A DNA stretch of 64,000 bases from Candidatus Woesearchaeota archaeon (GCA_964367375.1 CAYIXG010000001.1:148254-212253); one strand, 5' to 3'. Positions 9,183-64,000 are shown, counted from the first letter of the stretch. Numbers and translations are program-made. Notes: generated by a model from the sequence alone, not told the origin.

Positions 9183-9245
9183 TAATATAATATATTCTCC
9201 ATATAAATAAACAAAGAAGAAACAGTTCTTTATTATTATATTCTC

Positions 9246-25472: not shown

Positions 25473-25515
25473 AGAGAAGAAAAGAAATTGCTCCTATTTA
25501 TAGGTTTGGATGGCA

Positions 25516-33174: not shown

Positions 33175-33263
33175 CAGAGTAAATTTGTTGTCGTATTTTT
33201 AAAACTTTCTTGAGAAAAAACAGAGAATATTTAAAGAGAAGGCATTTCCTCTTCTTTTTGAGA

Positions 33264-34202
33264 ATGAAGATCAATCACGTGATTTCTACAGCGCAGTTTC
33301 TGGAGAGAGATGTGTTGCAAGAGCTGTTCCATCAGGCAGATGAGATGGAAATGCGTGATAAGAAAAAGAGTCTTCCAGAGCTGTTTAAGGGGAAGGTAAT
33401 GACTTGTGTTTTTTATGAGCCAAGTACAAGAACGAGATTTTCATTTGAGGCCGCAATGCAGAAGTTGGGAGGAAAAGTGATTACGACAGAAAGCGCTGGC
33501 CAATTTTCTTCAGCAACAAAAGGAGAGTCTCTGCAGGATACAATAAAGATCATGGGTGGGTATGCGGATGTGATTGTATTGCGTCATTCAGAGCAGGGTT
33601 CCGCTGCAATTGCGGCAGAAGTGTCTACTGTTCCTGTGATTAACGCAGGTGATGGTCCAGGAGAACATCCAACGCAAGCGTTGCTCGATTTGTACACAAT
33701 TCAAAAGGAGTGCAAAAAGATTGATGGAATAACGATTGCAATGGTGGGTGATTTGGTGCATGGAAGAACGATTCATTCTCTCGTGAAGCTCATTGCAATA
33801 TATAGAGATATCAAGATTTATTTCGTTGCTCCGGAGCAATTGAGATTGCCTGAAGAGTATAAAAGATATCTCAGAGAAAAGAATGTTTCCTTTGAGGAAG
33901 TTTCGAATTTGAAAGAGGTTGTAAAGAAAGTAGATGTATTGTACATGACAAGGGTGCAGAAGGAGCGGTTTACGAGTATCGAAGAGTATAACCAAGTAAA
34001 GGATGAATATATTATTAATAAGGACATTGTTAGTGTGTTGAAAAAAACTGCCATGATCATGCATCCATTGCCTCGAGTGAATGAGATTGATCCAGAAATA
34101 GATAGTGACCCGAGAGCCGCGTATTTCCGGCAGGCAAAGAATGGATTGTACATTCGCATGGCTCTCTTGCAGATGATCTTCAAAGGGAAGGAAGAGCAAT
34201 GA
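33264..34202 (+). CDS. pyrB: aspartate carbamoyltransferase catalytic subunit
   Basis: STRTRFSFE, HPLP, and carbamoyl-phosphate/aspartate binding motifs. The ORF extends to 33210, but MKINHVIS is the more typical start. Confidence 0.85.
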   Translation: MKINHVISTAQFLERDVLQELFHQADEMEMRDKKKSLPELFKGKVMTCVFYEPSTRTRFSFEAAMQKLGGKVITTESAGQFSSATKGESLQDTIKIMGGYADVIVLRHSEQGSAAIAAEVSTVPVINAGDGPGEHPTQALLDLYTIQKECKKIDGITIAMVGDLVHGRTIHSLVKLIAIYRDIKIYFVAPEQLRLPEEYKRYLREKNVSFEEVSNLKEVVKKVDVLYMTRVQKERFTSIEEYNQVKDEYIINKDIVSVLKKTAMIMHPLPRVNEIDPEIDSDPRAAYFRQAKNGLYIRMALLQMIFKGKEEQ

Positions 34203-48245: not shown

Positions 48246-50171
48246 ATGGAAGCTCCTATACATCCATCGGAAGAAGAAAGATCTGGATTGTTAGCAAGAC
48301 TCAGAAACACAGGGAAGAAACTGTGGGAAAACGTTGAGCTGTATGTGGAGCAAAGAAGGCGGAAGCAAAAAGAGATGCGATTTCAAAGAGGAAGGGTAGA
48401 TTACGCATTATCATCCCTTGCAAATAGGATGCGAGTTGCAGTGTGGAACCATCCCACATTATTTACCTTAGCCACTGCAGTAACTACTGCGTTTACAAGA
48501 AAAGAGACAAATGATGAACAGATAGGCGTTGCTTTAGCATACGCTGTAGGTGCAGATTGTTTAAAATATATTATTAACAGAAATGTGCAAAAGGAGTCAA
48601 GAACTGCTGCAGAAAAAACTAATTTAGCAAAAATTATGGAGGTTGAATACTTAAACGAAATAATTCACCTTGTAAGAGAATATTACGGCCACAGAGGAGA
48701 AGTAGTGAGCATTGAGGAAGATACAGGGAAGCAGGATGGCACAGGTATTTTCAAGAGTGGCTATTCATCAAAAGTGCGGTTTAGATTTGCCGATGGAAAT
48801 ACTGCAGAAGTGTTCTATAAATATTCAGAAAAGCACGATCCAGGAAATGTAACAGCGGAGCGTGAAGGACGTTTCACAAATCTTTTACACGCTGCAGGGT
48901 TTGAATTTGTTCCACACGTGTTTATTCCATTTATGTCTAATTCAAGATTCATTAGATGGCTGAGAGGGGGCTGGAGCGATGAAGTGGAAGAAAAAGCTTC
49001 GCAACCAAATAGGGGTGTAGTATACGAATACATTGATGGAGAGACATTAGAAATGCGAGTTCGGGGAGAACACTCAAATGTTGATCAAAGAAAAATAATT
49101 CCTACAGCTACCGTATGCGAAACGTTTAGGCAGTTAGGGCAATTATACATGTTTGCAGGACAAGATAATGTGATTGGAGAGAAAGGGTTGTTTGGAGCAA
49201 GAGATGATGTTCCTCTTGAAGAGTACAGGTTCCACCATTCGCTTGTTTCTAAATTAGAAGGGGTTGGAGAAAAAGATTTTGCAAGAAGATTGAGGTTGGC
49301 GCATTTGCATACATTTAATGGTATTCCACTCACGATAGTACACGGTGATTTGCATCAAGGCAACATCATTGAAACCAGAAAAGGAAGTGTAAAGATTATT
49401 GACTGGGATAATGCAGCATTTGGCGTTCCATATGAAGATTTCTTCCATTTCGCAGTCATTTCCGATTTTGAAAGGAGCACGGATTTTGAAAAAGAAAGAA
49501 CTGCATTTGTGAAAGCGCAAGAAAAACAAGGAATTCACCTTTCTGAAGAACACTTAAAATTAATAGAGTTTGAGACATATCTGAGTTTATTCGCTCGATA
49601 TCAGCATGCGATAGTGAATGAAGAGATAAATGAAGAGTTTTGGGAGAACATGCATACTTCATGTAGGTATCTCTTAGAAGGTGCAAGAAAGTCAGTAACG
49701 CAATATGCGGATCTCACGGGAAATAGAGAATTAGCAGATAATTTTGAAAAGTTTGCTGAGAAAACTTTAGTAGAATCTATCACATCTTATAACCCATTAG
49801 CAAGCATTGCGTATGCGCACCGAGTGAATGCAAATGAAAGAAAGCTTGACAAAAGAGAAGCTGCGGTGGTAAACTTCACACGACACGCAGCCAGATTGGA
49901 AACAAGTTTACGCGCTGATCAAACATTGCGTGCAGTAGGAAGATTCGTGAAAGCAGGATTTGATATTGGATTACATTATGGCGCATATCACTTAATCAAA
50001 ACATGGGCTGAGTTGAATGCTGCAGGAAATTTGGATGGAGATGATATGAGTTTCACGACAAGGACTGTAGCAACACTAGGAGCTTTAGGAGTGTATGATT
50101 ATTTCTTCACTCCAATTCCTCGATGGATAAAGGCAGGTGTGCAGCGAGTATTCGGGAGAGAGGAGCATTAA
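48246..50171 (+). CDS. protein-kinase-like fold (APH/ChoK/CotS-type) kinase with N- and C-terminal hydrophobic extensions
   Basis: Brenner motif IVHGDLHQGNII and DWDNAAFGVPYEDF (DxD). 641 aa. Confidence 0.5.
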   Translation: MEAPIHPSEEERSGLLARLRNTGKKLWENVELYVEQRRRKQKEMRFQRGRVDYALSSLANRMRVAVWNHPTLFTLATAVTTAFTRKETNDEQIGVALAYAVGADCLKYIINRNVQKESRTAAEKTNLAKIMEVEYLNEIIHLVREYYGHRGEVVSIEEDTGKQDGTGIFKSGYSSKVRFRFADGNTAEVFYKYSEKHDPGNVTAEREGRFTNLLHAAGFEFVPHVFIPFMSNSRFIRWLRGGWSDEVEEKASQPNRGVVYEYIDGETLEMRVRGEHSNVDQRKIIPTATVCETFRQLGQLYMFAGQDNVIGEKGLFGARDDVPLEEYRFHHSLVSKLEGVGEKDFARRLRLAHLHTFNGIPLTIVHGDLHQGNIIETRKGSVKIIDWDNAAFGVPYEDFFHFAVISDFERSTDFEKERTAFVKAQEKQGIHLSEEHLKLIEFETYLSLFARYQHAIVNEEINEEFWENMHTSCRYLLEGARKSVTQYADLTGNRELADNFEKFAEKTLVESITSYNPLASIAYAHRVNANERKLDKREAAVVNFTRHAARLETSLRADQTLRAVGRFVKAGFDIGLHYGAYHLIKTWAELNAAGNLDGDDMSFTTRTVATLGALGVYDYFFTPIPRWIKAGVQRVFGREEH

Positions 50172-52067
50172 ATGACAAGAAGAAGACACACGTGGGCAGA
50201 TGAGCTGGGTGAAGAAAAAAAGAATCTGGTTCTTGATACTCTTTTATCAAAAATAGGAAGTGCTTCAAGAAAGTTTCATGAAGGACGATTTACCTTCACT
50301 ACAATAGGAGCAACATTGGGTGGATTAGATACGTTACTTTCTGGAGAGCTTGATTGGAAAGGTTTGGCATGGTTATTGGGTGGTGGATTAGCTTTCGATG
50401 CGTTAAAGGCAGGTGTTTATTACGTGAGAAACCAAGGGCAGATCAAAAAAATTAGAAACGAAAAAACAACAATTGGAAGGGTGATGGGCTCTGATTATTT
50501 AGAAGCGCTCATCACGAACATTCGAGAGTATGGATGTGCGCGAGGGGAGTGTGTGGCAATTGAAGAGCAGGTAAGCAACACAGAAGGTACAAACTTGCAC
50601 AGGGAGGGTTATACAATCTCGCTTATGTTCACGTTCGCAGATGGAACGCAAGTGCCAGCTTTTTTCAAGTACAACTACAGGCAGGGCAATGATGAGCATC
50701 CAGAGAATAATGGAAGAATAACGAGATTTTTGAGTGACAGAGGTCATTCGTTTGTGCCAAAAGTATTGAGTCCTGATATAGATGTATTAATGCAAGAACA
50801 GTTGTTTACTCTTGATAGGGAAAGAGGAACTGCTTCTCCAATAGAAGGTACAACAAACCGAGGATTGGTGTATGAATGGGTCAACGGTGCAAACTTGGAA
50901 TGGTTATTATACACGGAAAAAAATGTTGTGGTGAAAGGGAGCTTCAGGCAGAATACATTAAGTGTGAATGATATTCCTGTGGATGCACTTTTTGAGAATA
51001 TGTGGGAGGTGTATGAAGATGACTTGCGAGGATTTTTTTTACCTGCGAAAACAAGAACGTTTCACAATAGTTTAGTTGCAAAAATACAGCAAGCTTCACC
51101 AGAATTTGCATCTATAGTAGATAAGGTGCATAAAGAAACGATTACAGATGATGCATTGCTGTTGAAAGCGAGAATAATTCATGGTGATTTGCATCAAGGC
51201 AACATCATGGTAAATACAGGAGAAGTCATGACACACGGAATGTTTGGAACGCAGTTCACCGCAGCAGGGATTAAAGTATTTGATTGGGACAATGCGGAGA
51301 TTGGCATTCCTTATCAGGATTTCTTCCATTTTGCAGTTATTTCAGATTTTGAGAGAAGTGATGCATTTCCTGAAGCAAGAGCTAAATTCTTAAAAAAGCA
51401 GAAGAAAGTACTTCCTGGAGTGACTGAGGCGCAGACGAGATTGATCGAATTTGAAACCTATGTAAGTTTGCTCATGCGATATCATGCAGCAGTCGCAGAA
51501 AAAACGCTGAAGCCAGAGTTTGAGCAGAACATATTGACCTCATGCAGGTATTTGCTTGAGAAATCAAGAGCTGCAGTAGATGCGTTTGCTGCGACAACTG
51601 GAAATGATGGCATACGCACTGCATACGATCAATTTGTCAGGGAAAATCTGAGTGAAGTGGAAGCAACGCCATTTGATCAAAGTGCGAGCGTTGGCTATGC
51701 GCACACAGTTAATCATAAAGAGCGACGGATTAAAAATGGAGATTCATTAGCAGATGTGGTGCGGAAGAATCAGCAGGTCCATCAAAGAAGAATAGAGAGA
51801 AGAGTCAAGCAGACAAACCTTTATGGAAATATGCTATGGTTTGCAGCTGCATTAAACACGGCAGTCTACGCATATATAATGGGAGCGACATATGTTGGCA
51901 TGCAGGCAGGAAAGGTAAGTCAGGAGCACTTTTCTGAGGCTGCAGTGGATGGTGGGAAAGGTCTTCTTGCTATTTATGGATTGGCGTTACTTGGAAACAA
52001 CATTGATAGAATAGTAAGATGTGGGAAGCGAATGTATCACTGGTTTGCAGGGCAACGCAAATCATAG
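50172..52067 (+). CDS. protein-kinase-like fold (APH/ChoK-type) kinase, tandem paralog
   Basis: IIHGDLHQGNIM and FDWDNAEIGIPYQDFFHFAVISDFERS. Start directly abuts the upstream paralog's stop. Confidence 0.5.
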   Translation: MTRRRHTWADELGEEKKNLVLDTLLSKIGSASRKFHEGRFTFTTIGATLGGLDTLLSGELDWKGLAWLLGGGLAFDALKAGVYYVRNQGQIKKIRNEKTTIGRVMGSDYLEALITNIREYGCARGECVAIEEQVSNTEGTNLHREGYTISLMFTFADGTQVPAFFKYNYRQGNDEHPENNGRITRFLSDRGHSFVPKVLSPDIDVLMQEQLFTLDRERGTASPIEGTTNRGLVYEWVNGANLEWLLYTEKNVVVKGSFRQNTLSVNDIPVDALFENMWEVYEDDLRGFFLPAKTRTFHNSLVAKIQQASPEFASIVDKVHKETITDDALLLKARIIHGDLHQGNIMVNTGEVMTHGMFGTQFTAAGIKVFDWDNAEIGIPYQDFFHFAVISDFERSDAFPEARAKFLKKQKKVLPGVTEAQTRLIEFETYVSLLMRYHAAVAEKTLKPEFEQNILTSCRYLLEKSRAAVDAFAATTGNDGIRTAYDQFVRENLSEVEATPFDQSASVGYAHTVNHKERRIKNGDSLADVVRKNQQVHQRRIERRVKQTNLYGNMLWFAAALNTAVYAYIMGATYVGMQAGKVSQEHFSEAAVDGGKGLLAIYGLALLGNNIDRIVRCGKRMYHWFAGQRKS

Positions 52068-52117: not shown

Positions 52118-53077
52118 ATGGTCATCATTTATCGTGGTAAAATTGAGGAAGTTGCACGAGAGTTGCAGAAGCATAAAGATGTGTTAGATGCGCAGTATGT
52201 GAAGATTCTCGGCAGTGAACGTGCGAAGAAGGTAGCAATAGGAGCAGAGAGATTGCTTCCTTCAGAAAGCTTTTTTGACACTCCAGAACAAGTAAAACAA
52301 GCAACTGGTGCTAATATTGAAGCGAATACACCGAATAAGATGTTGTTGGCGAGCGACACAAATATGGTGATTGGGGAAGATGGAAGAATAAGCAATAGAA
52401 AAATAAGGACTGCACCCGGATTTTATATTTCAGCAGCAGGGTTTGAACATTCTGGTTCTAAGCAGTTTACAGAGAATCCTCTAGCATCATATGTGCATGA
52501 GTTTGATCATTTTATATGGTATGCATTGCAAGAGAAGCCGTTTGCATTAATAAACATGGCTTTAGATGAAGCGTTGCAACCAAAACGAAAACCGCTTCAT
52601 CTTCCGAATTATGTTGAAGAACTGTTAGCAGCTCACCTTTCACAGGAAGAAATGTTACGGCGATTAGTCTTAGCAGTGTTTTCTGAGATAACTGAGGATG
52701 CGCATGAAAAATCAAATAGGATACTTGATCAATGGGTGTTAAGGTCAATAGGAGTGAACGTGCCTCTCGACTGGCGGGGAAAGGAAAAGGAGTATGCAGG
52801 ATTTCAGCTTCCAACAGGGCAGATCATCGGTTTGCCGGTTGGTGGAGATCAATTTAAAGGATTCAAGGATGAAGAGGTGCTTGAACGAATGATTAAATGG
52901 CAGGATCATTTTGCACCATCTCTTTCTGCGTATCGGTTTGGAGATAGAAGAGGCGTTTCTGGCAGCCCTCCCTATCTGCACAATCTTATTGAATCCTTCG
53001 GGAGCGTGAAGATATCTCGCGTGTCGCTTGTAGAGTTAAAAAGGTTATCCGCAAGAAAAAAGAAGCGGAGGGATTAG
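52118..53077 (+). CDS. hypothetical protein with HExxH (HEFDH) zincin-like motif
   Basis: 319 aa. YVHEFDHFIWYAL. Downstream of the kinase pair. Confidence 0.3.
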   Translation: MVIIYRGKIEEVARELQKHKDVLDAQYVKILGSERAKKVAIGAERLLPSESFFDTPEQVKQATGANIEANTPNKMLLASDTNMVIGEDGRISNRKIRTAPGFYISAAGFEHSGSKQFTENPLASYVHEFDHFIWYALQEKPFALINMALDEALQPKRKPLHLPNYVEELLAAHLSQEEMLRRLVLAVFSEITEDAHEKSNRILDQWVLRSIGVNVPLDWRGKEKEYAGFQLPTGQIIGLPVGGDQFKGFKDEEVLERMIKWQDHFAPSLSAYRFGDRRGVSGSPPYLHNLIESFGSVKISRVSLVELKRLSARKKKRRD

Positions 53078-53141
53078 TAAATGTGGTTTATACATATTGG
53101 ATAATAGTAATCTATTAAAACTGGTTCTTGTTCCTCTCGGA

Positions 53142-54872
53142 ATGCACCAACCAGCGCAAAAAACGAAGTATATAGTTGTTCTCGGTGGAGTGTTATCAGG
53201 CGTTGGGAAAGGTGTTGCAACGGCTTCTATTGGAAAGATTTTGAAGGAATACGGCTTGTCAGTCACTGCAATGAAGATTGATCCGTATCTGAATTTGAAT
53301 GCTGGCACCTTAAGACCTACAGAGCATGGGGAAGTCTGGGTGACTGATGATGGCGGTGAGATTGATCAGGATCTTGGCAATTATGAACGATTTCTCGGGG
53401 TTGACATTCCGAAGAAGAATTGTATCACCTCTGGGCAGATTTACAAGACAATTATTGATAAGGAGATTGCTGGCGGGTATCTAGGAAAGACAGTGCAGTT
53501 TATTCCGCACGTGCCGGATGAGGTGAAGCGCAGGATAAATGATGCTGCCGATGGATTTGAGGTGTGCTTGATTGAAGTTGGCGGAACAGTGGGCGATTAC
53601 GAGAACATTCCCTTTTTGTTTGCGGTAAAAAGTTTGGAGCGAGAGTTAGGAAAGGAAAACATGATGTATGTGCTTGTGTCTTATTTGCCTGTGCCATCTC
53701 ATGTGGGTGAGATGAAAACCAAGCCAACACAAATGGCAGTGAAGTTGTTGTCTGAGCAGGGTATTTTCCCTGATTTTATTTTGTGCCGTGCGGCAAAGCC
53801 GTTAGATGAGATACGGAGGAAGAAGATCGAGCAGTATGCAAACATTCCTGCAGAGCATGTCATTTCTGCTCCGGATGTGGATACTATTTATTCCATTCCA
53901 TTAAATTTTGAGAAGGAAAATCTGGGTGAGAAGATTATGAATCAGTTGAAGGTAACGCCAAAAAAGAAGCTGTCGTGGGATAAGTGGAAGGTGCTTGTGG
54001 ATATTTTGAGGAGCGCGCAGAAGAAGGTGCATATTGCGATGATCGGGAAATATGTGGAGAGTGGTGATTTTGTACTTTCTGATTCATACATTTCTGTGAA
54101 TGAATCATTGAAGCACGCTGCTGCAGCAATTGGGATGGGCATCACAATTTCCTGGGTGGATGCAAAGGCATTGGAGCAAGAAGAGGATATCAACCAAATG
54201 CTTGAAAAGTTTGATGGGATTGTTGTTCCTGGAGGATTTGGAGCGACAGGCGTTGAGGGGAAAATAAATGCAATTCAGTATGCACGGGAGCACAAAGTGC
54301 CCTATTTGGGGTTGTGTTATGGGATGCAGCTTGCGGTTGTTGAATTTGCGAGAAATGTGTGTAATTTGAAAGATGCGCACACAACAGAAATTAGTAAAGG
54401 CTGTGCATCTCCGGTGATTGACCTTCTTCCGGAGCAGCAGCAGGTGAAGGAGATGAGTGGCACGATGCGTCTGGGTGCGTTTGCTGCTGTGTTGAAGGAA
54501 GGCACGCAAATTGCGCGTCTGTATCAAGAGACGAAACGTGTGGAGAAAGATCAGGTGCGGTTAGAAACGCTTCGCGAGAATGGTGAAACATTGAGATTAG
54601 GGAAACTTCCAGAAAAAGGGATAGTGATCTTAGAAAGGCACAGGCATCGGTTTGAGCAAAATCCGAAGTTTGTCAAGGCATTGGAAGATAAGGGTATGGT
54701 TTTTTCTGGCTATCACGAGCGTCAGGATGGCACAAGATTGATGGAGTTTATTGAGCTTCCCGGACAAACCTTTTTGGGAACGCAAGCGCATCCGGAGTTC
54801 AAGTCGCGGTTGGAAGATCCATCGCCGTTATTTCTGGGATTTGTGGAGGCTGCTGCCAAGCAGAAAGCTTAA
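53142..54872 (+). CDS. pyrG: CTP synthase
   Basis: KYIVVLGGVLSGVGKG N-terminus. GATase catalytic GLCYGMQ. Start placed at MHQPAQK (the ORF opens at 53097). Confidence 0.9.
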   Translation: MHQPAQKTKYIVVLGGVLSGVGKGVATASIGKILKEYGLSVTAMKIDPYLNLNAGTLRPTEHGEVWVTDDGGEIDQDLGNYERFLGVDIPKKNCITSGQIYKTIIDKEIAGGYLGKTVQFIPHVPDEVKRRINDAADGFEVCLIEVGGTVGDYENIPFLFAVKSLERELGKENMMYVLVSYLPVPSHVGEMKTKPTQMAVKLLSEQGIFPDFILCRAAKPLDEIRRKKIEQYANIPAEHVISAPDVDTIYSIPLNFEKENLGEKIMNQLKVTPKKKLSWDKWKVLVDILRSAQKKVHIAMIGKYVESGDFVLSDSYISVNESLKHAAAAIGMGITISWVDAKALEQEEDINQMLEKFDGIVVPGGFGATGVEGKINAIQYAREHKVPYLGLCYGMQLAVVEFARNVCNLKDAHTTEISKGCASPVIDLLPEQQQVKEMSGTMRLGAFAAVLKEGTQIARLYQETKRVEKDQVRLETLRENGETLRLGKLPEKGIVILERHRHRFEQNPKFVKALEDKGMVFSGYHERQDGTRLMEFIELPGQTFLGTQAHPEFKSRLEDPSPLFLGFVEAAAKQKA

Positions 54873-55258: not shown

Positions 55259-55696
55259 TCATCCGGTGCTGCCAAATCCGCCGCGTGTTTTTTTTGTGAT
55301 TTCATCCACTTCTTCAAAGTCAACTTTGGTTATCTTGACGAAAACTGCTTGCGCGATGCGTTCTCCTTTTTCGATGATGACGGGCTGGTCTGCGAAGTTG
55401 TATACTTGCAGTTGTAAAACATCGTCTGGGCCGCAGTAATCCTGGTCGATGATGCCAATGCCATGAGGAATGAGCAGGTTTTTCTTTCGGGGTGTGGAGG
55501 ATCTGGGAACAAGCACAAGCATATGATCTGGTGGTGTTTCAATGATGGTGTTTAAGGGAACAAGGGCAACTGTTTTAGGAGGAATAATTACTTCTTTCCC
55601 GCTCGTGAGGTCAAATGCTGCCGCTCCTTTTGTGTGGTATTGGGGTAAAGGAATGGTTTTGTCGATGCGTTTAATGGCGGCTTTCATGGATATCAA
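55259..55696 (-). CDS. dut: dUTP diphosphatase (trimeric dUTPase)
   Basis: All five dUTPase motifs: AAAFDL, RSSTPRK, GIIDQDYCG, GERIAQ, RGGFGSTG. Confidence 0.85.
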   Translation of the reverse strand: MISMKAAIKRIDKTIPLPQYHTKGAAAFDLTSGKEVIIPPKTVALVPLNTIIETPPDHMLVLVPRSSTPRKKNLLIPHGIGIIDQDYCGPDDVLQLQVYNFADQPVIIEKGERIAQAVFVKITKVDFEEVDEITKKTRGGFGSTG

Positions 55697-55853: not shown

Positions 55854-57605
55854 ATGCCGTTAAAAAATTTTTCTGAGGAAGAAGCAGAGAAGATTCGCGC
55901 GTTTTTGTTTACCAATCCTCATGGAGACACGAGTTTTGTGTATCCACAGCAATTAGTTGCAGGGGAAGAGCTTTCTCCATTAATGGCTGCGTATTCGCGC
56001 ACGCATATTCCTTTTCAAGACAGAGTATTGCAATTTCTTGATGTTGAGAAGCCTGAGCAAACGCGGGGTTTTCTTCCCTTCATTGATCCGCTGGTGCAGC
56101 TGTTTCGGAATGCTGATGGGTCGCTTGTTGTCTCTCGGAAGACGCGGGGGTTTAATGAGGAGTGGGTGTTGAAGCATGGGCATAGTTCAATTAAGGAGGA
56201 GACTGCCTTGTTTGGATATTGTGAAGATGTTTCTGACATCACAGGGAAGCAAATCACCGGCCATCCATTAATAAAGCCGCAGGTGAAGTCAACGCGCTAT
56301 CTTTCCTATGGGAAAGTGTTGGAGCGTTCGCTTGATGATCCAGACATACGTTCTTTACCGAATGCAGATCGTATTCTTGAGCACATTGTTTTTCTGAATA
56401 AAAGATATCTTGAAGTTGCAGAGCAGCTTGCAACATTGGTGTGGGAGCATGCAGATACGAGAGAAGCAGTTGCGTTTCTCAGAAGTCCAGCAGTGGTAGA
56501 AAGGGAAGTGAGGCGGCGTTTTGAAAAAGCAGGAAAAAGTAACCCTTCAGAAGAAGAATGGAAAAAAGAATATAGATCTGTAGAGAAAGGGGTAGCTGAT
56601 GAGGGAATAAGGAAGGATGTTGCAAAAGGCGTTCTTGATGATGCGCGGGTGTATCTTCCTGCAGTGACACGAACGTCTATCGGATTCTCTGTTGATGCGA
56701 GAACCTTAGAAGATGTTATCATAAATCTTATTTCAAGTGAAAGACAGGAAGATCAAGAAAGAGGAAATGTGCTCTGGAGAGAGGCGAGAAAGATAGCTCC
56801 AGTGCTTCTTGGAGAGAGAAGTCATGTGAAAAGGGATGAGTGGAGAAGGGCAACAGAGAAGGAGCTGAGGGTGTATGTGGAGCGTAATCTTGGCCATTGT
56901 GATAGTGAAGAGAAAAGAAGAGTGCGTTTAATCACGCCGCGAGGGATTGATATAGATTCTGATATATGGAGCGCGACGGTGGTTGCGTTCCAGTATGCTG
57001 ATGCGTCTGTGTTGGATATATATACGCTAATGACAGAGGAGCATGCTGCTGACATTCTTGAGTTGGCACATAAGCACAGATCAGATCATGATGTGCTGCA
57101 TCCTGCGATTGCGCATAGTGGGTTTATGGTTGAGTTTTTGATGGGATATCATGCGTATCGTGATGTGTTTCGTCACAGAAGAGGTTCGAGAACGAATCAG
57201 CGGTTGACAACAATGCATGGGTTTGAGGTTCCGGAAATATTCAAGGTTTTTGGGATAGATGAAAGATACAAAGAGGATATGGAGAAAGCGGCGCAGGTCT
57301 ATGAAATGGTCAGGAGACAGGCAGGGATGCAGGTTGCGGAGAAGCTCGTTCCGTTTGGAGCATTGTGTCGGTCGTTGCATTCCTGGCAGGTCAATCAGAT
57401 GGGATATGTAGGAAGGTTGAGAAGTGACATTGCAAAGGGGAATCGGTCGTATGTGGAAGTAACACGAGAGCTCATGGCTGAAGTGGGAAAAGTGCTTCCG
57501 GAGACTGCAAAATATTTGAGGTATGATACGCGAGAATATCCTTCACACCTCTGGAAGGGTGCATATGAATGGTATGATGCGACGCAACGAGGGAAGGGAA
57601 AATGA
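55854..57605 (+). CDS. ThyX-like (flavin-dependent thymidylate synthase family) protein, long tandem/degenerate form
   Basis: The C-terminal half carries FRHRRGSRTNQ (RHRxxS). The N-terminal half carries KSTRY (SxRY-like). 583 aa against about 220-250 for canonical ThyX. Confidence 0.5.
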   Translation: MPLKNFSEEEAEKIRAFLFTNPHGDTSFVYPQQLVAGEELSPLMAAYSRTHIPFQDRVLQFLDVEKPEQTRGFLPFIDPLVQLFRNADGSLVVSRKTRGFNEEWVLKHGHSSIKEETALFGYCEDVSDITGKQITGHPLIKPQVKSTRYLSYGKVLERSLDDPDIRSLPNADRILEHIVFLNKRYLEVAEQLATLVWEHADTREAVAFLRSPAVVEREVRRRFEKAGKSNPSEEEWKKEYRSVEKGVADEGIRKDVAKGVLDDARVYLPAVTRTSIGFSVDARTLEDVIINLISSERQEDQERGNVLWREARKIAPVLLGERSHVKRDEWRRATEKELRVYVERNLGHCDSEEKRRVRLITPRGIDIDSDIWSATVVAFQYADASVLDIYTLMTEEHAADILELAHKHRSDHDVLHPAIAHSGFMVEFLMGYHAYRDVFRHRRGSRTNQRLTTMHGFEVPEIFKVFGIDERYKEDMEKAAQVYEMVRRQAGMQVAEKLVPFGALCRSLHSWQVNQMGYVGRLRSDIAKGNRSYVEVTRELMAEVGKVLPETAKYLRYDTREYPSHLWKGAYEWYDATQRGKGK

Positions 57606-58252
57606 AGATAGAAATCTTGCGAAGAATTCCTTTTTCTGAATTGGAAGATATGATAAGGCGTGTGCCGTTGAAGGGAAAGACTCCTGAGGGAAAAGATATC
57701 TTGGTATATCAGCATGCGCGGATTGCGCTGAAACAGCTTGAGGCTGGTGAGGTGAATCCGACAACGTTTTATCTGGTAAGAAAGAATATGGATGTGCAAA
57801 GAGAGATACGTGCATGCTTGCGTGCAGAGCATGGCATTGACAGTCTTCAGCTTGATGGCGCGTTGGAGATTCAGAATGATCAAGGAGAGGTGTGGACATT
57901 AACGCCTCCGATTGTTGAATTCACTTCAAGGATTGTGCACTATGTTGCGCAGCAGGGGGAGAAAGAGTGTGAAAGAAATGTAAAGATTGCAATTCCTATC
58001 GTTAATGATGGTGCGCATCGGGTTGCGCTCGCAAGGGATTTAGGAGTTCCTTTTAATGCAGTGGTTATTTCTGGCGCATTGGAGGCATTTCTCTTTTATG
58101 CGCATCCGAATGCGTGGGATGAAGTGCGTTTAGTTGATGCAGTTCCTGCACAAAGAGAGGAGAAGAAGTTATACATAAGAGACGACTGTTATTTCTTGTA
58201 TCGTGATTTTGGTGTATTGGGATGCGGAGCTCCGCGGAGTCCTCACAAATAA
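57602..58252 (+). CDS. ParB/sulfiredoxin-like (ParB N-terminal NTP-binding/nuclease fold) protein
   Basis: IPIVNDGAHRVALARDLGVPFNAVVI matches the DGhHR…ArelG core of the ParB/Srx fold. Stop overlaps the next gene. Confidence 0.45.
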   Translation: MKIEILRRIPFSELEDMIRRVPLKGKTPEGKDILVYQHARIALKQLEAGEVNPTTFYLVRKNMDVQREIRACLRAEHGIDSLQLDGALEIQNDQGEVWTLTPPIVEFTSRIVHYVAQQGEKECERNVKIAIPIVNDGAHRVALARDLGVPFNAVVISGALEAFLFYAHPNAWDEVRLVDAVPAQREEKKLYIRDDCYFLYRDFGVLGCGAPRSPHK

Positions 58253-58253
58253 A

Positions 58254-58871
58254 ATGGCAAAGCTCATTCATATTGTGGGAACATCAGGGTCTGGAAAGCA
58301 AACATTGCAGCAAGACCTTCGGCAAAGAGTTGAGCGTGCAGGTTTTGCTGTTGAGGAGATTGTTGAGCCTGGTCCGTTAGCGAGGTTCATTAAGGAATAT
58401 CGTCTCTCTCCAGAGAAAGACCCGTGGGTTGAAGTTGCATTGTTTACTGCAGATCGAACGATGACTTATGCACAAAAGATTCTTCCAAGAATACATGATC
58501 CAAATAGGGTGTTTGTGAGCGCTCGGGGATTGCCAGACACGATTGTCTATCAAGGGTTGATTGGAGGTGTGGATATTCCAATCATTATGAGGATGAATAG
58601 GCATATTCCTGAGTCTGATCTGTATCTTGTGCTTGTTGTGAGTGGAAATGTGGGTCATGAGAGGATACGGGCAAGATATTGTTCGAGTGGAAGAGATGAG
58701 CATAGGATAAGTCCGAACGAGCAGCCTGCTGCGATTGATAAATTAGCAGCAGAGTATCGAACGCTTCCTGATTTTTTTCATAATGTGCATGTGATTGATA
58801 CAACCTCTCTTTCTCCTGAGGAAGTGGGAGAAGCAGCGTGGAAAGAAGTTGAGAGTGTGTTGAAAAAATGA
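58254..58871 (+). CDS. divergent thymidylate-kinase-fold P-loop (d)NMP kinase
   Basis: P-loop IHIVGTSGSGKQT, ALFTADRTMTYAQ (Tmk FaaDR-like motif), lid region. Distinct from the canonical tmk at 63567. Confidence 0.5.
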   Translation: MAKLIHIVGTSGSGKQTLQQDLRQRVERAGFAVEEIVEPGPLARFIKEYRLSPEKDPWVEVALFTADRTMTYAQKILPRIHDPNRVFVSARGLPDTIVYQGLIGGVDIPIIMRMNRHIPESDLYLVLVVSGNVGHERIRARYCSSGRDEHRISPNEQPAAIDKLAAEYRTLPDFFHNVHVIDTTSLSPEEVGEAAWKEVESVLKK

Positions 58872-59521
58872 GTGAAAAAGAAGTGGATGTTGTTGGTTTT
58901 GATCTGGATAATACATTGTATACGCTTACAGAGGAAATGCAGTCCTGGATAAGGCAGAGGGTGTGTGTAGTTACAAGTGAAAGGTTGAGGAGAGATAGTG
59001 GTGAAGTGCAAAGGGAATTTGAAGAAAGGTATAAAGAGTTGCAGAGTGCGCGACGATCCCTCATGGCCTTAGGATTGCCAGAGGATGAATCTATAGACAT
59101 TGTGCAGCGTTGTTTAGAAGAGGAAGAAATAGTAGGATTCATCAAGAGGGATGAGCAGCTTGCTGCATTAATAGGTAAATTGCGAAAAGAATATGGGCTT
59201 TTTTTGATTACAGGAAGTAATGAAAAGCTCACAGGAGAAAAATTAAGAAGGTTGGGTGTGGAGAAAGAAGTTTTTTCAGTAATGGTGTGTGCAAACACTC
59301 AATACAGAAGGGAAGATGGCTCTGCATTTCACTATGTGTCTGCAGCGCTGCAAGTTCCTCATCAGCGGATGCTTTTTGTGGGTGATAGAGAAGCAGTTGA
59401 CATTCTTCCCGCAGCGCGATTAGGAATCAAAACAGCAATAGTAAATGGGCGTTCTGCGCATGCAACGTATAATTTGAGCACTCTTTATGATCTTGAAGGG
59501 ATTCTTTTAGCAAGAAGGTGA
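58868..59521 (+). CDS. HAD-superfamily phosphatase (nucleotidase-like)
   Basis: Motif I VVGFDLDNTLY (DxDxT). Confidence 0.6.
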   Translation: MSEKEVDVVGFDLDNTLYTLTEEMQSWIRQRVCVVTSERLRRDSGEVQREFEERYKELQSARRSLMALGLPEDESIDIVQRCLEEEEIVGFIKRDEQLAALIGKLRKEYGLFLITGSNEKLTGEKLRRLGVEKEVFSVMVCANTQYRREDGSAFHYVSAALQVPHQRMLFVGDREAVDILPAARLGIKTAIVNGRSAHATYNLSTLYDLEGILLARR

Positions 59522-59525
59522 ATGG

Positions 59526-60086
59526 TTAATCTTGGCTGATTTTGCTTGCCCCTGGCCCGACAGATTTCAGATATTTTGAATCTGGTCGTTTATCATAGGG
59601 TGTGCTGGTGGGAGTGCTGAGTTTGTCAAATGTGATTCTGCAGATGCGTGATCCTGGCCAGAGCTTGATGGGAACTTTTGCAATGTTCACAATTTCCAGG
59701 GTAATATTGCCTTCGAATCCGGGGTCAATGGATCCGGCTGTGGAGTGAATCACCAATCCTAATCGTGCGAGTGAGCTTCTTCCATCGAGCCGTCCGACAA
59801 GGTCATAGGGGAGCTTGACGTATTCCTTTGTGCTTCCGAGGACAAGTTCTCCAGGATGGATGACAATAGAGTTACCTTCGTCAATAAGGAAGCTGTGCAT
59901 GTGGTGGTCTTTCACGCCTTCTTTGGTGTCGATGTGGGTTAAGTCATTGTATTTGTACATCTTAAATTGGGAGCTTAAATGGAGATCAACAGATGCCATG
60001 GAGATGCATTCGGGCAGGTGATCTTTAATTAACAGAGCTCCAGAAGAAAGGTATTTTTTGATGTCAATGTCGCTTAAGACTACCAT
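59526..60086 (-). CDS. dcd: dCTP deaminase
   Basis: 186 aa. LPYDLVGRLDGRSSLARLGL…AGSIDPGF matches the Dcd/dUTPase-like jelly-roll motifs. Confidence 0.8.
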   Translation of the reverse strand: MVVLSDIDIKKYLSSGALLIKDHLPECISMASVDLHLSSQFKMYKYNDLTHIDTKEGVKDHHMHSFLIDEGNSIVIHPGELVLGSTKEYVKLPYDLVGRLDGRSSLARLGLVIHSTAGSIDPGFEGNITLEIVNIAKVPIKLWPGSRICRITFDKLSTPTSTPYDKRPDSKYLKSVGPGASKISQD

Positions 60087-60222
60087 AGGTATTATGAATG
60101 AGGAGAGTTTAAATGGTTTTTATCACTTGAATATAGATGTTGAAAATGAATGAAAGAAAAAAGAGAACTATTCCTAATAATAATAAGGCAATGTTTATAA
60201 AAAGGAGTTTTCTATCTGAAAT

Positions 60223-61236
60223 ATGCAGCGTTTAAAAGCAGCAGTGATTGGTTTAGGGCGTCAAGCAATAGAAGATCATATCCCTGGCTTGAAGGATTCT
60301 CAATTTGGTCAATTAGAGGCAGTCTGCGATCTTGATGAAAGAAAGGTTGCAGAATGGAGTGAGAAGACAGGCGTGCGGGGATTTAAGGATTATAATGAAC
60401 TATTTGATAGTGTAGAACTTGATTTTATTGTAGCTGTAACGCCTCATAATGTGTATCCTGGAATTATTGAAGAGGCAGCGAAGAGACGTTTGCATGTGTT
60501 GAAAGAGAAACCATTTGCACGAAATTTGCAGGAAGCTTCTCATTTTAGAAGTATATGTGAGAAGAATGGTATTCAAGTAATGACGACATTGCAAAGGAGG
60601 TTTAATCCGGTGTATAGCACATTTTTTCAGCTTATAGATCAAATTGGAAATCCCTTTTTTGTGGATATTAAATACACTCTTTTTGTAGAAAATCCTCATG
60701 AAGGATGGAGAGCAAGCAAAGAAAAAGCAGGTGGGGGGTGTATTATTGATATGGGATATCATATGGTTGATATGATTATATGGTATTTTGGTCTTCCTGA
60801 TAAAGTCCATGCAGAATGCTCGTCGCTGGCAAAATCAGATGAAAAATATGACGCAGAAGATACTGCAAGCATTCTCTTTTCGTATGATACAGGATTGCAT
60901 GGTTCGCTATTAGTATCGCGATCTCTGCCTCCGAAAACAGAACAAATGAGGGTTGTGGGAAGTAGAGGTATTATTGAGGTTGAAAGAGGTCATATTCGAA
61001 AGTTGAGAAGTAATGGAGAAGTAGCTGAATCATTAACAAGAGAGCACGCGTGGCCTGTTGCTGCAGCAAACCAAATTGATTATTTTTGTAGAGTAATCAA
61101 AGGAGAAAGAGAAAATATAGGTGGTCCTCAGTATCACATGCAGCACGTGAGTTTTGTAGATGCATGTTATCAATCAAAGGCAGAAGGAAGATATGTCAAT
61201 CCAAAGGAGTTGTTAGCACGATGCCAAACGTCTTAG
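60223..61236 (+). CDS. Gfo/Idh/MocA-family NAD(P)-dependent oxidoreductase (inositol/sugar dehydrogenase-like)
   Basis: N-terminal Rossmann fold KAAVIGLGRQAIEDH. C-terminal alpha/beta dimerisation domain. Confidence 0.7.
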   Translation: MQRLKAAVIGLGRQAIEDHIPGLKDSQFGQLEAVCDLDERKVAEWSEKTGVRGFKDYNELFDSVELDFIVAVTPHNVYPGIIEEAAKRRLHVLKEKPFARNLQEASHFRSICEKNGIQVMTTLQRRFNPVYSTFFQLIDQIGNPFFVDIKYTLFVENPHEGWRASKEKAGGGCIIDMGYHMVDMIIWYFGLPDKVHAECSSLAKSDEKYDAEDTASILFSYDTGLHGSLLVSRSLPPKTEQMRVVGSRGIIEVERGHIRKLRSNGEVAESLTREHAWPVAAANQIDYFCRVIKGERENIGGPQYHMQHVSFVDACYQSKAEGRYVNPKELLARCQTS

Positions 61237-62471
61237 CAATTCATGGTGGTGAAAAAAGAGTATCGATAGAGAGACCGCATTATGTGTGGCCACCAATAAC
61301 GGAAAGAACAAGAGAAGCAGTGTTGAGGCAACTTGAGGAAAGCATTTCTATTTATGACAGGTCTGGAATTATAGAAAGGTTAGAAAACCGATGTGCTGAG
61401 TATCATGGAAAAAAACATGCACTTCTGACAAGTTCTGGGACTGCGGGATTACATAGCATGTTTGTTGGTGCTGATGTGAAGGAAGGTGATGAGGTAATTT
61501 GTCCTGCATATACTTTTTATGCAACAGTCACTCCTTTATTTTTTACAGGAGCTGTTCCGGTACTCGCTGATTGTACAGAGGAAGGAAATATTGATCCGAA
61601 AGATATTGAGAAAAAAATCACCGGTCGTACAAAAGCAATAGTGGTGACGCATATGTGGGGGATACCAGGAGATATGGAAGCAATAAAAAAAATTGCAAAG
61701 GAGTATCATCTTCTATTGTTTGAGGATGGGTCACATGCGCATGGGGCTCTTTATAAAGGAGAAAAAGTAGGAACATGTGGCGATGCTGCTGTATTGAGTT
61801 TACAAGGACAAAAAACAATAACTGGAGGAGAAGGTGGAATATTAGTAACAGATAATGATGAACTCTTTTACAGGGCATTGTTATTTGGTCATTATAATAA
61901 GAGATGCAAAAGAGAAATACCTGTTGATCATCCTCTTCATCTATTTGCTGTCACGGGAATGGGATTGAAGTTACGAATTCATCCTCTTGCAGCTGCCATT
62001 GCAGATGAGCAGTTTGACAACCTGGAAAGTGTTTTGGAAGGACGAAGAAAAACTGCTGGAAGGATGAGAAATGCATTGCAAGGAGTGGCAGGAATTTCAG
62101 TTCCGAAAGTAGGTGAAGGCAAAAGCCCCAGTTGGTATGGGTTTGTCATGCAGTATAATGCAGAAGAGTTAGGGGGGCTTTCTATTGAAAGATTTTTTGA
62201 AGCAGTAGTTGCTGAAGGGTGTAAAGAGTTAGATAGGCCGGGATCAACATGTCCGTTAAATCTGCATCCTCTTTTTCAAACGCCAGAAGCGGTATTTCCT
62301 CAGTATAAGGGAAGAGTAAGGTACAAAAAGGGAGATTTTCCAAGAGCTGAGGAATTTCATGCTCGTTCCTTGAAGTTACCGGTATGGCACGACCCAAATG
62401 ATAATGAAATTGTTGAAGGATATATTGAAGCATTGAAAAAAGTAAGTAAGCATCACGGTGATCTTTTATGA
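61221..62471 (+). CDS. DegT/DnrJ/EryC1/StrS-family PLP-dependent aminotransferase
   Basis: PLP-lysine context SLQGQKTITGGEGG. Start at MPNVLAIHGG overlaps the oxidoreductase stop. Confidence 0.75.
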   Translation: MPNVLAIHGGEKRVSIERPHYVWPPITERTREAVLRQLEESISIYDRSGIIERLENRCAEYHGKKHALLTSSGTAGLHSMFVGADVKEGDEVICPAYTFYATVTPLFFTGAVPVLADCTEEGNIDPKDIEKKITGRTKAIVVTHMWGIPGDMEAIKKIAKEYHLLLFEDGSHAHGALYKGEKVGTCGDAAVLSLQGQKTITGGEGGILVTDNDELFYRALLFGHYNKRCKREIPVDHPLHLFAVTGMGLKLRIHPLAAAIADEQFDNLESVLEGRRKTAGRMRNALQGVAGISVPKVGEGKSPSWYGFVMQYNAEELGGLSIERFFEAVVAEGCKELDRPGSTCPLNLHPLFQTPEAVFPQYKGRVRYKKGDFPRAEEFHARSLKLPVWHDPNDNEIVEGYIEALKKVSKHHGDLL

Positions 62472-63565
62472 AAACGCAGCTTCCTGTAGTTAATGTGTTT
62501 ACAGAATGGGCGCCATTGAAAGAGGTGATTATAGGTTCTTGCGTGAACTTTAATCATCTCAAAATTGATACAACTTTCAGGTTTATGTATGAGAATAGGG
62601 ATGGTCATTTTAAAGACAGGAATTTTCCATGGCAAATCGACCCGAGATATGTTGCAGAGCGACAGGAGGATTTGGATAATTTGCAAGAATTATTAGAGAA
62701 AGAAGGAGTTGTTGTGAGAAGGCCTGAGCGTCTCGATGATGTCACAGAGATTAAAACTCCTTTTTTTGATGCATATACCACAGCATGCGATTCGCCAAGG
62801 GACATGTTTCTTTGTATTGGCGATGAGATTATAGAAACGCCTCCAACAAATACGAAGAGGTTCTTTGAAGGATATTTGTTAAGAGAAATATTTATGGAAT
62901 ATTTCAGAAGAGGAGCACGATGGACAGTTGCTCCGCGGTCAACAGTAGATCAAAAAAGGTTGGATCTCTCATATTGGAAAGATAATGTAGGAAAACCAGT
63001 AGATAAAATGGAAGATATAGAACCAGTTTTTGAAATTGCGATTGATGCTGCAAACTGCTTAAAATTTGGAAAAGATGTGGTAGTAAATGTGGGGACAAAA
63101 AATCAGGAGTTAGGGGCATATTGGTTGCAAAGGCATCTGGAAGGAAGATTGAGAGTGCATATGGTAAGAATGGCGGACAGCCATTTAGATGGTCATCTCG
63201 TTCCTATTGCTCCGGGGAGATTATTAGTAAATGAAGGTGCAATGCACGGGCTCTATGATTGTTTACCTGCACCTCTGAAAAAGTGGGATATTGTTCCTAT
63301 TCTTGATAAGAGCACAAATTTTGATTATCCTAATGATCATTTGCAGATGGCAACAAATGTGGGAATGAGTGTGAACGTATTATCTCTCGATGAAAGAAGA
63401 ATTCTCATTAGGAATACTGCAACGTTAACTATTGAGGCTTTAAAGAAAGCAGGTTTTGAGCCAATTCCTGTACAGTTAAGGCATAGTGAGCTTTTTGGTG
63501 GGGGCATTCATTGTACAACTGTTGATGTGAGAAGAGATGAAGCAATAGATGATTTTTTTAGTTGA
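62468..63565 (+). CDS. amidinotransferase-family enzyme (AGAT/StrB1-like)
   Basis: C-terminal catalytic motif GGGIHCTTVDVRRD (compare HC.T.DVRR of glycine/inosamine-phosphate amidinotransferases). Confidence 0.6.
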   Translation: MKTQLPVVNVFTEWAPLKEVIIGSCVNFNHLKIDTTFRFMYENRDGHFKDRNFPWQIDPRYVAERQEDLDNLQELLEKEGVVVRRPERLDDVTEIKTPFFDAYTTACDSPRDMFLCIGDEIIETPPTNTKRFFEGYLLREIFMEYFRRGARWTVAPRSTVDQKRLDLSYWKDNVGKPVDKMEDIEPVFEIAIDAANCLKFGKDVVVNVGTKNQELGAYWLQRHLEGRLRVHMVRMADSHLDGHLVPIAPGRLLVNEGAMHGLYDCLPAPLKKWDIVPILDKSTNFDYPNDHLQMATNVGMSVNVLSLDERRILIRNTATLTIEALKKAGFEPIPVQLRHSELFGGGIHCTTVDVRRDEAIDDFFS

Positions 63566-63566
63566 A

Positions 63567-64000
63567 TATGAAAATTGTTTCTTTTGAAGGAATTGATGGT
63601 GCTGGTAAAACAACGCAAACGAGACTGCAATACGATCGTTTAGAACAAGAAGGTCTATCTGTTGGTGTATATTCGTATAGTAATAAAAATAATAGATGGG
63701 GAAGGATCATTAGAAGAATGTATACATTGGATGCGCCGACACCGTTTGACTGGTTTTTTCGGAGGAGAGGAGTGCAAGAGGTATTATACTCCCTTTCTGC
63801 TCGACATAATTTGAAAGAATCTGGTTTATCTGGAAGAGACGTTGTTATATCAGATAGAAGTATTGTGACTGCATATGCAAGCCATATAGATCAAGTGCCA
63901 GAATGGTTCATATCTTTTGTGGAGCCTTCTTTCGTGCCTAATTTAGTTGTTTTTTTAGATGTTCAACCTCAAGTAGGTTTAGAGAGAATAAGCGGAAGGG
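63567..64000 (+). CDS. tmk: thymidylate kinase (3' end outside window)
   Basis: MKIVSFEGIDGAGKTTQ P-loop, ISDRSIVT, VVFLDV. Confidence 0.8.

Follow-up and report, generated by a model that had tools for sequence, protein, structure and literature searches.

The window analysed here is a 64,000-nucleotide stretch from a Candidatus Woesearchaeota archaeon (GCA_964367375.1 CAYIXG010000001.1:148254-212253). Positions 60223-63565 hold three genes, for a dehydrogenase (Gfo), a pyridoxal 5'-phosphate (PLP) aminotransferase (DegT) and an amidinotransferase (AmT), which open an operon of six genes in the order Gfo, DegT, AmT, TmkB, NudA, NudB. The operon is real and conserved, and apparently undescribed: a literature search of incomplete coverage, so that undescribed means not found there, returned nothing on it, on the related cassette without amidinotransferase described below, on guanidino-nucleotides or on amidinotransferases of DPANN archaea. 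We put at a little under an even chance the reading that the six genes modify the sugar ring of a nucleotide, combining an amination like that of puromycin and aminodeoxyguanosine biosynthesis with an amidination, to yield a guanidino-deoxynucleotide. A nucleotide substrate is suggested because the conserved partners of the trio, namely a kinase resembling thymidylate kinase (Tmk), a MutT-like Nudix pair, sometimes an NT5C nucleotidase, a protein with weak similarity to NDK and, in place of Gfo, a radical SAM enzyme resembling MoaA, handle nucleotides.

Operon organization

A preliminary description of this DNA had placed three overlapping, translationally coupled genes in the interval, and this was confirmed: three plus-strand open reading frames (ORFs) occupy positions 60223-63565. 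The Gfo gene (60223..61236, +; 337 residues) ends in a TAG codon (61234-61236) that falls inside the DegT gene (61221..62471, +; 416 residues), an overlap of 16 nt. The sequence ATGA at 62468-62471 is common to the DegT stop and the start of the AmT gene (62468..63565, +; 365 residues). The DegT frame is open from 61164, and its start at 61221 follows the gene calling on a public contig from a groundwater metagenome (L004) that is identical to the window. The TmkB gene, coding for a Tmk-like P-loop kinase, begins 3 nt past the AmT stop codon and is cut by the window end, leaving its 5' part (63568..64000, +), in which MKIVSFEGIDGAGKTTQT was read. On L004 the operon is complete, with TmkB at 8390-9037 (215 residues) followed by genes for two Nudix proteins, NudA (9034-9531) and NudB (9521-9973), which overlap each other. 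A TATA-like box, TTTATAAAA (60194..60202, +), was read from the sequence some 21-29 nt 5' of the first start codon and, by analogy with archaeal promoter architecture, is the putative operon promoter. An Rfam scan of the region from 44 to 64 kb detected no RNA element and hence no riboswitch, the guanidine classes included.

Conservation across DPANN genomes

We assembled 80 genome loci around AmT homologues. All ORFs of these loci were scored with two sets of queries, the proteins of the window and the accessory proteins from two related contigs, and the flanking ORFs were clustered. Wherever an AmT homologue of at least 63% identity had enough flanking DNA (about 11 distinct versions), DegT and a dehydrogenase were present, and TmkB, NudA and NudB were found in nearly all of these versions. 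Because every such close homologue adjoins DegT and a dehydrogenase, the clustering is not due to chance. The hosts are Woesearchaeota, Pacearchaeota and Nanoarchaeia genomes, and the module is sporadic: of the species representatives scanned, roughly a dozen carry it.

The genes come in at least eight orders, among them Gfo-DegT-AmT-TmkB-NudA-NudB, Gfo-AmT-TmkB-NudA-DegT-NudB, Gfo-DegT-TmkB-AmT-NudA-NudB and AmT-NudA-HTH-NDKlike-rSAM-DegT-NudB-NT5C. The AmT gene shares nucleotides with that of DegT, Gfo or the radical SAM protein in several of these orders. On three contigs (L001, L010 and L180) NudA-DegT-NudB is a single uninterrupted ORF of 716 residues, and on a fourth (L009) DegT-NudB is a single ORF; these fusions were read from uninterrupted ORFs on metagenome-assembled contigs.

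Among the related loci no further conserved family was found within 10 kb of the module. Its conserved neighbourhood contained no sugar nucleotidyltransferase, glycosyltransferase, acetyltransferase or flippase, and no ligase (ATP-grasp, non-ribosomal peptide synthetase or amide synthetase) was conserved in the module itself. No inositol-phosphate synthase or inositol monophosphatase was seen near any module, and no inositol genes or glycosyltransferase among the window ORFs scanned. No actinomycete locus among the 80 combined an amidinotransferase with a nearby match to Gfo or DegT, which left no streptomycin-type cluster for comparison.

In five or six DPANN lineages the module is accompanied by a protein of ∼390 residues that is absent from the window (L001 7807-8979, L002 11588-12754, L011, L013 and L014). 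It combines an uncharacterised N-terminal domain with a C-terminal ArsR/TrmB-like winged helix and may be a dedicated regulator or sensor.

The amidinotransferase

AmT is without a Pfam match, and its family was set through a PDB sequence search. Over residues 7-364 it matched the solved amidinotransferases SxtG (4.5e-54), StrB1 (2.8e-49), HsvA (3.6e-48) and human AGAT (2.6e-46), in agreement with the AGAT/StrB1-type assignment made beforehand. Counted on the alignment, D193, H239 and C349 correspond to D179, H227 and C332 of StrB1. This Asp-His-Cys triad, whose presence had been proposed as a check, is invariant in 17 homologues, and the C-terminal GGGIHCTTVDVRR motif is found as well. Curated arginine deiminase and DDAH models returned only C-terminal DDAH matches of 22-24 bits, compared with cut-offs of 300-340 bits, which excludes the assignment that, together with WbpB/WbpE-type best matches of the other two proteins, had been named beforehand as pointing to ordinary glycan biosynthesis. 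Judged by its sequence, AmT is a genuine amidinotransferase of the AGAT/StrB1/SxtG family, predicted to transfer an amidino group from arginine to an amine; it is the candidate for the amine-to-guanidine step. Its identity to StrB1, SxtG, HsvA and AGAT is alike, in the 35-40% range, and because the latter three score like StrB1 there is no specific affinity for StrB1. The molecule name of StrB1 in the PDB is inosamine-phosphate amidinotransferase, that is, its acceptor amine sits on a phosphorylated ring.

The view that amidinotransferases are very unusual in archaea did not hold, as dozens of AmT relatives at 60-75% identity occur in Woesearchaeota, Pacearchaeota and Nanoarchaeota. The AmT tree was a simple neighbour-joining tree without support values. 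Homologues of at most 55% identity (in Omnitrophota, Bacteriovoracaceae and other bacteria) lie in polyketide synthase or radical SAM/SPASM contexts, some with only a weaker DegT-family match (1e-23 to 1e-49) a few kb away, and are uninformative about the module. In one bacterial metagenome-assembled genome (L088 1-5886) an ORF of more than 1966 residues, made of repeated B12-binding/radical SAM units and surrounded by further radical SAM/SPASM genes, adjoins a 53%-identical AmT homologue.

An origin in phage DNA modification was also considered and found to be unsupported. IMG/VR viral contigs (L091-L170) carry many distant amidinotransferase-like proteins, all remote from AmT (23-37% identity), and the viral collection contained no relative of Gfo.

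Dehydrogenase, aminotransferase and the exchange of Gfo for a radical SAM enzyme

Gfo belongs to the Gfo/Idh/MocA family of NAD(P)-dependent dehydrogenases, as had been proposed, with Pfam matches to PF01408, PF02894 and PF22725 at 1e-16 to 2e-23, and would catalyse the hydroxyl-to-keto step. Its EKP motif (K94-E95-K96-P97) and the residues D176 and H180 are invariant in 14 orthologues. In the PDB search its best solved relatives were WlbA-type UDP-sugar 3-dehydrogenases (4e-20, 75 bits); we take the entries 3q2i and 3q2k to be the WlbA UDP-GlcNAcA 3-dehydrogenases. The top NCBIfam match was inositol 2-dehydrogenase IolG (1e-29; 103 bits compared with a cut-off of 355), and an archaeal UDP-GlcNAc 3-dehydrogenase model matched at 6e-25 (88 bits, cut-off 450).

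DegT is a DegT/DnrJ/EryC1/StrS-type PLP aminotransferase (PF01041 at 7.6e-74), again as proposed, and the candidate for the keto-to-amine step. The family also contains dehydratases of the ColD/E1 type. In DegT the PLP lysine is K198, within SLQGQK, at the alignment position of the KdnA and QdtB lysine, so that it is a transaminase and not such a dehydratase. Its matches are sugar and NDP-sugar aminotransferases, namely the curated PseC model at 3e-52 (178 bits, cut-off 423), QdtB, KdnA and AHBA synthase; among solved structures KdnA (9e-44) ranked above the 2-deoxy-scyllo-inosose aminotransferases (8e-39). The PDB entries 8gyh and 8y96, also matched, gave no functional lead.

Neither Gfo nor DegT reached an NCBIfam equivalog cut-off. 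With WlbA the nearest solved relative of Gfo and KdnA ahead of the cyclitol enzymes for DegT, the specific relation to StrI and StsC that had been suggested gains no support. The assignment to WbpB/WbpE-type UDP-sugar enzymes, the other half of what was to point to ordinary glycan biosynthesis, was not obtained either, given scores of 88 and 178 bits against the cut-offs of 450 and 423 and the absence of a conserved glycosyltransferase or acetyltransferase nearby. The series from hydroxyl to keto, amino and finally guanidino group is kept as the natural reading of the trio.

In nine module loci (eight and the window) the dehydrogenase is Gfo, always with DegT nearby; in six others a 310-residue MoaA-like radical SAM protein is present, and the two were never found together. 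Across both types DegT and AmT remain orthologues at 53-69% identity, so that a non-homologous enzyme stands in for Gfo beside the same two partners. A full-length match at 5e-44 (150 bits, below the cut-off of 325) links the radical SAM protein to archaeal MoaA, and the equivalent of MoaA R17, a GGEPL motif and a TxNG motif are retained. After MoaA, the solved structures closest to it are those of viperin and of BlsE, a cytosylglucuronate decarboxylase, both of which act on nucleotides or nucleosides. The protein scored 70 bits with the viperin model (cut-off 180). As the curated MoaA and viperin models are not passed, the protein is, by sequence comparison, MoaA-like in architecture only. 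MoaA binds nucleoside triphosphate (NTP) and abstracts the 3'-hydrogen of GTP; a MoaA-like enzyme in the place of Gfo would for this reason fit a 3' oxidation of an NTP.

These findings bear on the substrate favoured in the preliminary description, in which a cyclitol (myo-inositol or scyllo-inosose) would be oxidised, transaminated, phosphorylated by aminoglycoside phosphotransferase (APH)-fold kinases and amidinated as in streptidine biosynthesis. The trio shares with the streptidine branch (StrI, StsC/StrS and StrB1; 1bwd) its three enzyme families, the catalytic Asp, His and Cys of StrB1 and a chemical series that ends in the transfer of the amidino group of arginine to a ring amine neighbouring a phosphate. 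AmT has StrB1 among its best solved relatives, IolG is the top NCBIfam match of Gfo, 2-deoxy-scyllo-inosose aminotransferases are among the DegT matches (∼1e-38), and APH-fold kinases and HAD phosphatases lie within 12 kb. We nevertheless consider a cyclitol substrate very unlikely. The IolG score is far below its cut-off and the other amidinotransferases match AmT as well as StrB1 does; none of the related module loci contains the APH and HAD genes seen in the window, and no inositol genes accompany the module. The conserved partners are instead nucleotide enzymes, and the Tmk-like kinase, the Nudix pair and the MoaA-like radical SAM protein would have no role in such a route.

The kinase, the Nudix pair and accessory proteins

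TmkB matches PF02223 at 2.8e-24 and narrowly passes the dTMP kinase model TIGR00041 (85.3 bits, cut-off 83.25). Its family is narrow, with 30 clusters at 163 bits or more and the next match dropping to 55 bits, and in comparisons with three other Tmk-like proteins TmkB reached no more than 21-32% identity. Several TmkB matches lie on contigs equal in size to those carrying AmT matches. On sequence grounds TmkB appears to define a narrow clade and not a general archaeal Tmk.

NudB is closest to MutT and pyrimidine (d)NTP diphosphatases (1e-13 to 3e-16). Further nucleotide-type proteins occur in individual lineages: one (L002) has an NT5C nucleotidase together with a protein weakly resembling NDK, another has a weak CYTH-like protein, and extra Tmk-like kinases are found among the accessory genes. 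The CYTH and NDK labels are sub-threshold (19-22 bits) and are weak hints only. In PADLOC, Gfo, DegT and AmT had no match to known or candidate defence models; NudB matched the candidate PDC-S07 at 3.5e-20 and TmkB weakly matched PDC-M51B.

A core cassette without amidinotransferase

Orthologues of Gfo, 55-57% identical, are present in many Actinobacteria, where Gfo, DegT and Nudix together show 55-60% identity. A (Tmk-like)-Gfo-DegT-Nudix cassette without AmT was found in Actinomadura, Streptomyces, Amycolatopsis and Streptosporangium and on one Aenigmatarchaeota contig (loci L089, L090, L171, L172, L173 and L175). Its proteins matched those encoded by the operon at 1e-130 (Gfo), 1e-143 to 1e-159 (DegT) and 1e-30 to 1e-40 (NudB). 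A metagenome census seeded with DegT gave 15 loci with orthologues of at least 39% identity; Gfo was adjacent in 13 of them, NudB was present in most, a kinase of the cassette type in several and AmT in one. The six core loci, whose surroundings were judged by eye, lie in mobile or defence-type settings: type I restriction-modification genes with a transposase, an MmeI-like methyltransferase with a TacAT toxin-antitoxin pair, and genes resembling those of integrative and conjugative elements (ICEs). One cassette is carried by the Streptomyces plasmid pSGZL, ∼9 kb from cas7.

The kinase of the core cassette (Tmk172/TmkAct type) differs from TmkB. Because of this difference, and because TmkB is narrow and found on contigs matched in size to those of AmT, the combination of AmT, TmkB and NudA reads as a DPANN-specific add-on, and the kinase-dehydrogenase-aminotransferase-Nudix core looks like an older, widespread mobile cassette.

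The separability of the core raises the question of whether AmT uses the DegT product at all. Its product might instead be a small guanidino molecule (guanidinoacetate, homoarginine or, as with HsvA, an amidinated polyamine), and its place beside an aminonucleotide cassette might serve co-regulation or the later joining of two products. Pseudouridimycin, in which guanidinoacetate is joined to an aminonucleoside, is an example of such a joined product. HsvA, AGAT and SxtG match AmT as well as StrB1 does, the core functions without AmT in Actinobacteria and Aenigmatarchaeota, and AmT forms a sub-module with a kinase and a Nudix protein of its own. We consider this arrangement improbable, as no ligase that could join the products is conserved, the AmT gene runs into those for DegT, Gfo or the radical SAM protein in more than one gene order, and the module-linked AmT clade never occurs without DegT.

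Hardly credible, in our judgement, is the absence of any joint pathway, with ordinary nucleotide-salvage or housekeeping genes kept adjacent by inherited synteny. The operon does abut dcd, dut, thyX, tmk and pyrG in the window, and TmkB does pass the dTMP kinase model, if narrowly. Inherited synteny would, however, have to accommodate the same gene set in at least eight orders, single-ORF fusions in some lineages, the swap of one component for a non-homologous enzyme, the sporadic distribution of the module, a core that recurs in Actinobacteria on plasmids and in ICE-like regions, and a TmkB clade distinct from general archaeal Tmk.

Two observations on the actinobacterial loci stand apart. 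In L171 and L173 a 388-residue HTH_3/HTH_31 regulator and a 5-formyl-THF cyclo-ligase-like gene recur beside the cassette. On a plasmid of Streptomyces sp. BB1-1-1 (L176 7956-11645) a distant Gfo (31% identity) and a DegT (4e-90) are followed by thymidine phosphorylase and set among GTP cyclohydrolase II, glycosyltransferases and ABC/MFS transporters; this may be a nucleoside natural-product cluster.

A predicted route to a guanidino-deoxynucleotide

The clustering of a Gfo/RifL-like dehydrogenase, a DegT aminotransferase and a MutT-type Nudix protein, as present in the window with L004 and in the related loci, is also that of aminonucleoside cassettes. In the biosynthesis of puromycin, A201A and cystocin, Pur10 (an NAD-dependent ATP dehydrogenase, RifL-like), Pur4 (an aminotransferase), Pur7 (a Nudix enzyme) and Pur3 (a phosphatase) start from an NTP and yield 3'-amino-3'-deoxyadenosine (PMC9239236, PMC11641026). 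The Pur homologues AdgB-E of Photorhabdus convert GTP to 3'-amino-3'-deoxyguanosine (PMC9239236, PMC11641026). An occasional phosphatase is a further likeness (here a HAD protein in the window and NT5C in L002), and the hydroxyl-keto-amine logic on an NTP is compatible with the kinase, Nudix and MoaA-like partners described above. The Pur and Adg cassettes differ in being without an amidinotransferase, a dedicated Tmk-like kinase and a second Nudix protein; the module, in turn, is without their MFS exporter and tailoring enzymes, and its hosts are DPANN archaea.

From these comparisons we infer a substrate, a modified position, an order of steps and a biological role for the module. A kinase would hold the nucleotide as the di- or triphosphate. 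Gfo would then oxidise a ribose hydroxyl to the ketone, most likely at the 3' position, like Pur10 and AdgB; in sister genomes the MoaA-like radical SAM enzyme would carry out this oxidation instead. DegT would turn the ketone into an amine by transamination and a Nudix enzyme would trim the polyphosphate. AmT would transfer the amidino group of arginine to the new amine via a thio-intermediate on Cys349, and TmkB and the second Nudix enzyme (NudA) would set the phosphorylation state of the product. A guanidino-deoxynucleotide is proposed because the acceptor of StrB1 is an amine on a phosphorylated ring, to which an amino-deoxy nucleoside monophosphate (NMP) would be comparable. A role of this product as a toxic or antiviral nucleotide analogue is speculative.

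Several points weigh against this route. The best solved relatives of Gfo are the WlbA-type UDP-sugar 3-dehydrogenases, and those of DegT use sugars, nucleoside diphosphate (NDP)-sugars or cyclitols as substrates; the link to the aminonucleoside pathways is one of family and gene context only. We are aware of no guanidino-nucleotide known from nature, and a 3'-keto intermediate would be chemically labile if the substrate were a 2'-deoxynucleotide. No universal phosphatase or exporter travels with the module, and two Nudix enzymes and a second kinase are explained only ad hoc. The operon of the window also adjoins the housekeeping pyrimidine genes dcd, dut, thyX and pyrG, and the nucleotide signal is possibly overstated at this locus, a caveat that does not apply to the other module loci.

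The same structural matches would suit an amino- or guanidino-sugar pathway, in which Gfo and DegT act on an NDP-sugar or sugar phosphate following the logic of WbpB/WbpE, RifL/RifK/RifM or NtdC/NtdA/NtdB (kanosamine). AmT would then complete a guanidino-sugar for a surface glycan, a solute or an antibiotic, with the Nudix enzymes freeing the sugar from its nucleotide carrier and the kinase recycling the NMP. Kanosamine and 3-amino-sugar routes likewise couple a Gfo-family 3-dehydrogenase to a DegT-family aminotransferase and a phosphatase. Gfo is nearest to WlbA and matches the archaeal UDP-GlcNAc 3-dehydrogenase model, DegT matches sugar and NDP-sugar aminotransferases (PseC, QdtB, KdnA and AHBA synthase), a HAD phosphatase lies directly upstream in the window, and the resemblance of Pur10 to RifL makes the two chemistries evolutionarily close. 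Still, we think a sugar route unlikely. The matches are weak (75 bits for WlbA) and the curated models are missed widely; the HAD gene is not conserved with the module, the conserved neighbourhood is without nucleotidyltransferase, glycan-assembly, acetyltransferase or flippase genes, and the actinobacterial cassettes are found among mobile-element and restriction-modification genes and not in glycan loci. NudB resembles MutT and NTP diphosphatases, not NDP-sugar hydrolases, and the alternative dehydrogenase resembles MoaA, which binds NTP. We know of no Nudix, kinase, MoaA-like or amidinotransferase partners in the RifL/RifK/RifM, NtdC/NtdA/NtdB, WbpB/WbpE or WlbA routes.

For the nucleotide route a second parallel is offered by the prokaryotic viperins (pVips), radical SAM enzymes that act on the ribose of an NTP and have a Tmk/CMPK-like kinase as their neighbour; the mobile or defence-type surroundings of the core cassette are similar too. 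The sister-locus radical SAM protein matched pVip models at 1.6e-21 (PADLOC) and 2.4e-19 (NCBIfam), in the radical SAM core only. Unlike the pVip systems, the window has Gfo and not a radical SAM protein, and the chemistry predicted is amination and amidination in place of dehydration. A wider proposal, which we advance with considerable doubt, is that a subset of DPANN archaea makes a guanidino-deoxynucleotide (for example 3'-guanidino-3'-deoxy-NMP or -NTP) by grafting AmT, with its own kinase and Nudix protein, onto the core cassette, the core being a new source of chain-terminating aminonucleotides for antiviral defence or inter-microbial conflict.

If the proposed route is correct, a guanidino-nucleotide would join the few natural sugar-modified nucleotide analogues, such as the 3'-amino nucleosides and the ddhNTPs made by viperin, several of which serve as antibiotics, antivirals or laboratory reagents. 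AmT would be the first amidinotransferase shown with a nucleotide acceptor. It would also follow that genome-reduced DPANN archaea spend six genes on a specialised small molecule, which would bear on their dealings with hosts or viruses. The Tmk-Gfo-DegT-Nudix core, common in Actinobacteria, is a candidate in its own right, either for production of a new aminonucleotide antibiotic or for a new form of immunity.

Neighbouring genes in the window

The preliminary description had also drawn APH-fold kinases at 48-52 kb and HAD phosphatases at 47.3 and 58.9 kb into the pathway. This part did not survive comparison: the two APH-fold kinases, both HADs and the ThyX-like, ParB-CE and TmkA proteins accompany the module in no other locus and were rejected as pathway members because they are not conserved with it. 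The upstream HAD-family phosphatase (58868..59521, +; PF00702 at 4.7e-12) is a possible accessory only, by a Pur3-like dephosphorylation; its membership is uncertain.

This HAD gene is the last of four overlapping plus-strand genes (55854-59521) that encode a ThyX-like protein, a ParB-CE domain protein, TmkA (a third Tmk-like type) and HAD. The ThyX-like protein has 583 residues, about twice the usual size (PF02511 at 8.8e-16). The four genes are flanked by those for dUTPase (55259-55696, −), dCTP deaminase (59526-60086, −) and CTP synthase (53097-54872, +), and the set may belong to pyrimidine dNTP metabolism or represent another operon for nucleotide modification. The APH-fold genes (48246-50171 and 50172-52067, +) are tandem paralogues of ∼635 residues, each with an APH/choline-kinase-like fold (PF01636) at its centre and a C-terminal part that is hydrophobic; they are followed by a 319-residue ORF without family match (52118-53077).

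Elsewhere in the window, two paralogous class II aminoacyl-tRNA synthetases of the Asp/Asn/Lys type lie beside GatE/GatB-like and GatD-like genes (17971-19263, 22162-23475 and 24054-27077, all −), and a carbamoyltransferase of the ornithine/aspartate carbamoyltransferase (OTC/ATCase) family is encoded at 33210-34202. Also encoded are FtsZ, NucS, an archaeal-type ProRS, an ATP-dependent DNA ligase and amidotransferase subunits of the GatD/GatE type. The closest AmT homologues carry Woesearchaeota, Pacearchaeota and Nanoarchaeota labels, and the source is a DPANN archaeon. GC skew is positive (0.08-0.34) in all 2-kb bins of positions 1-64000 regardless of gene strand, and the cumulative skew climbs monotonically.

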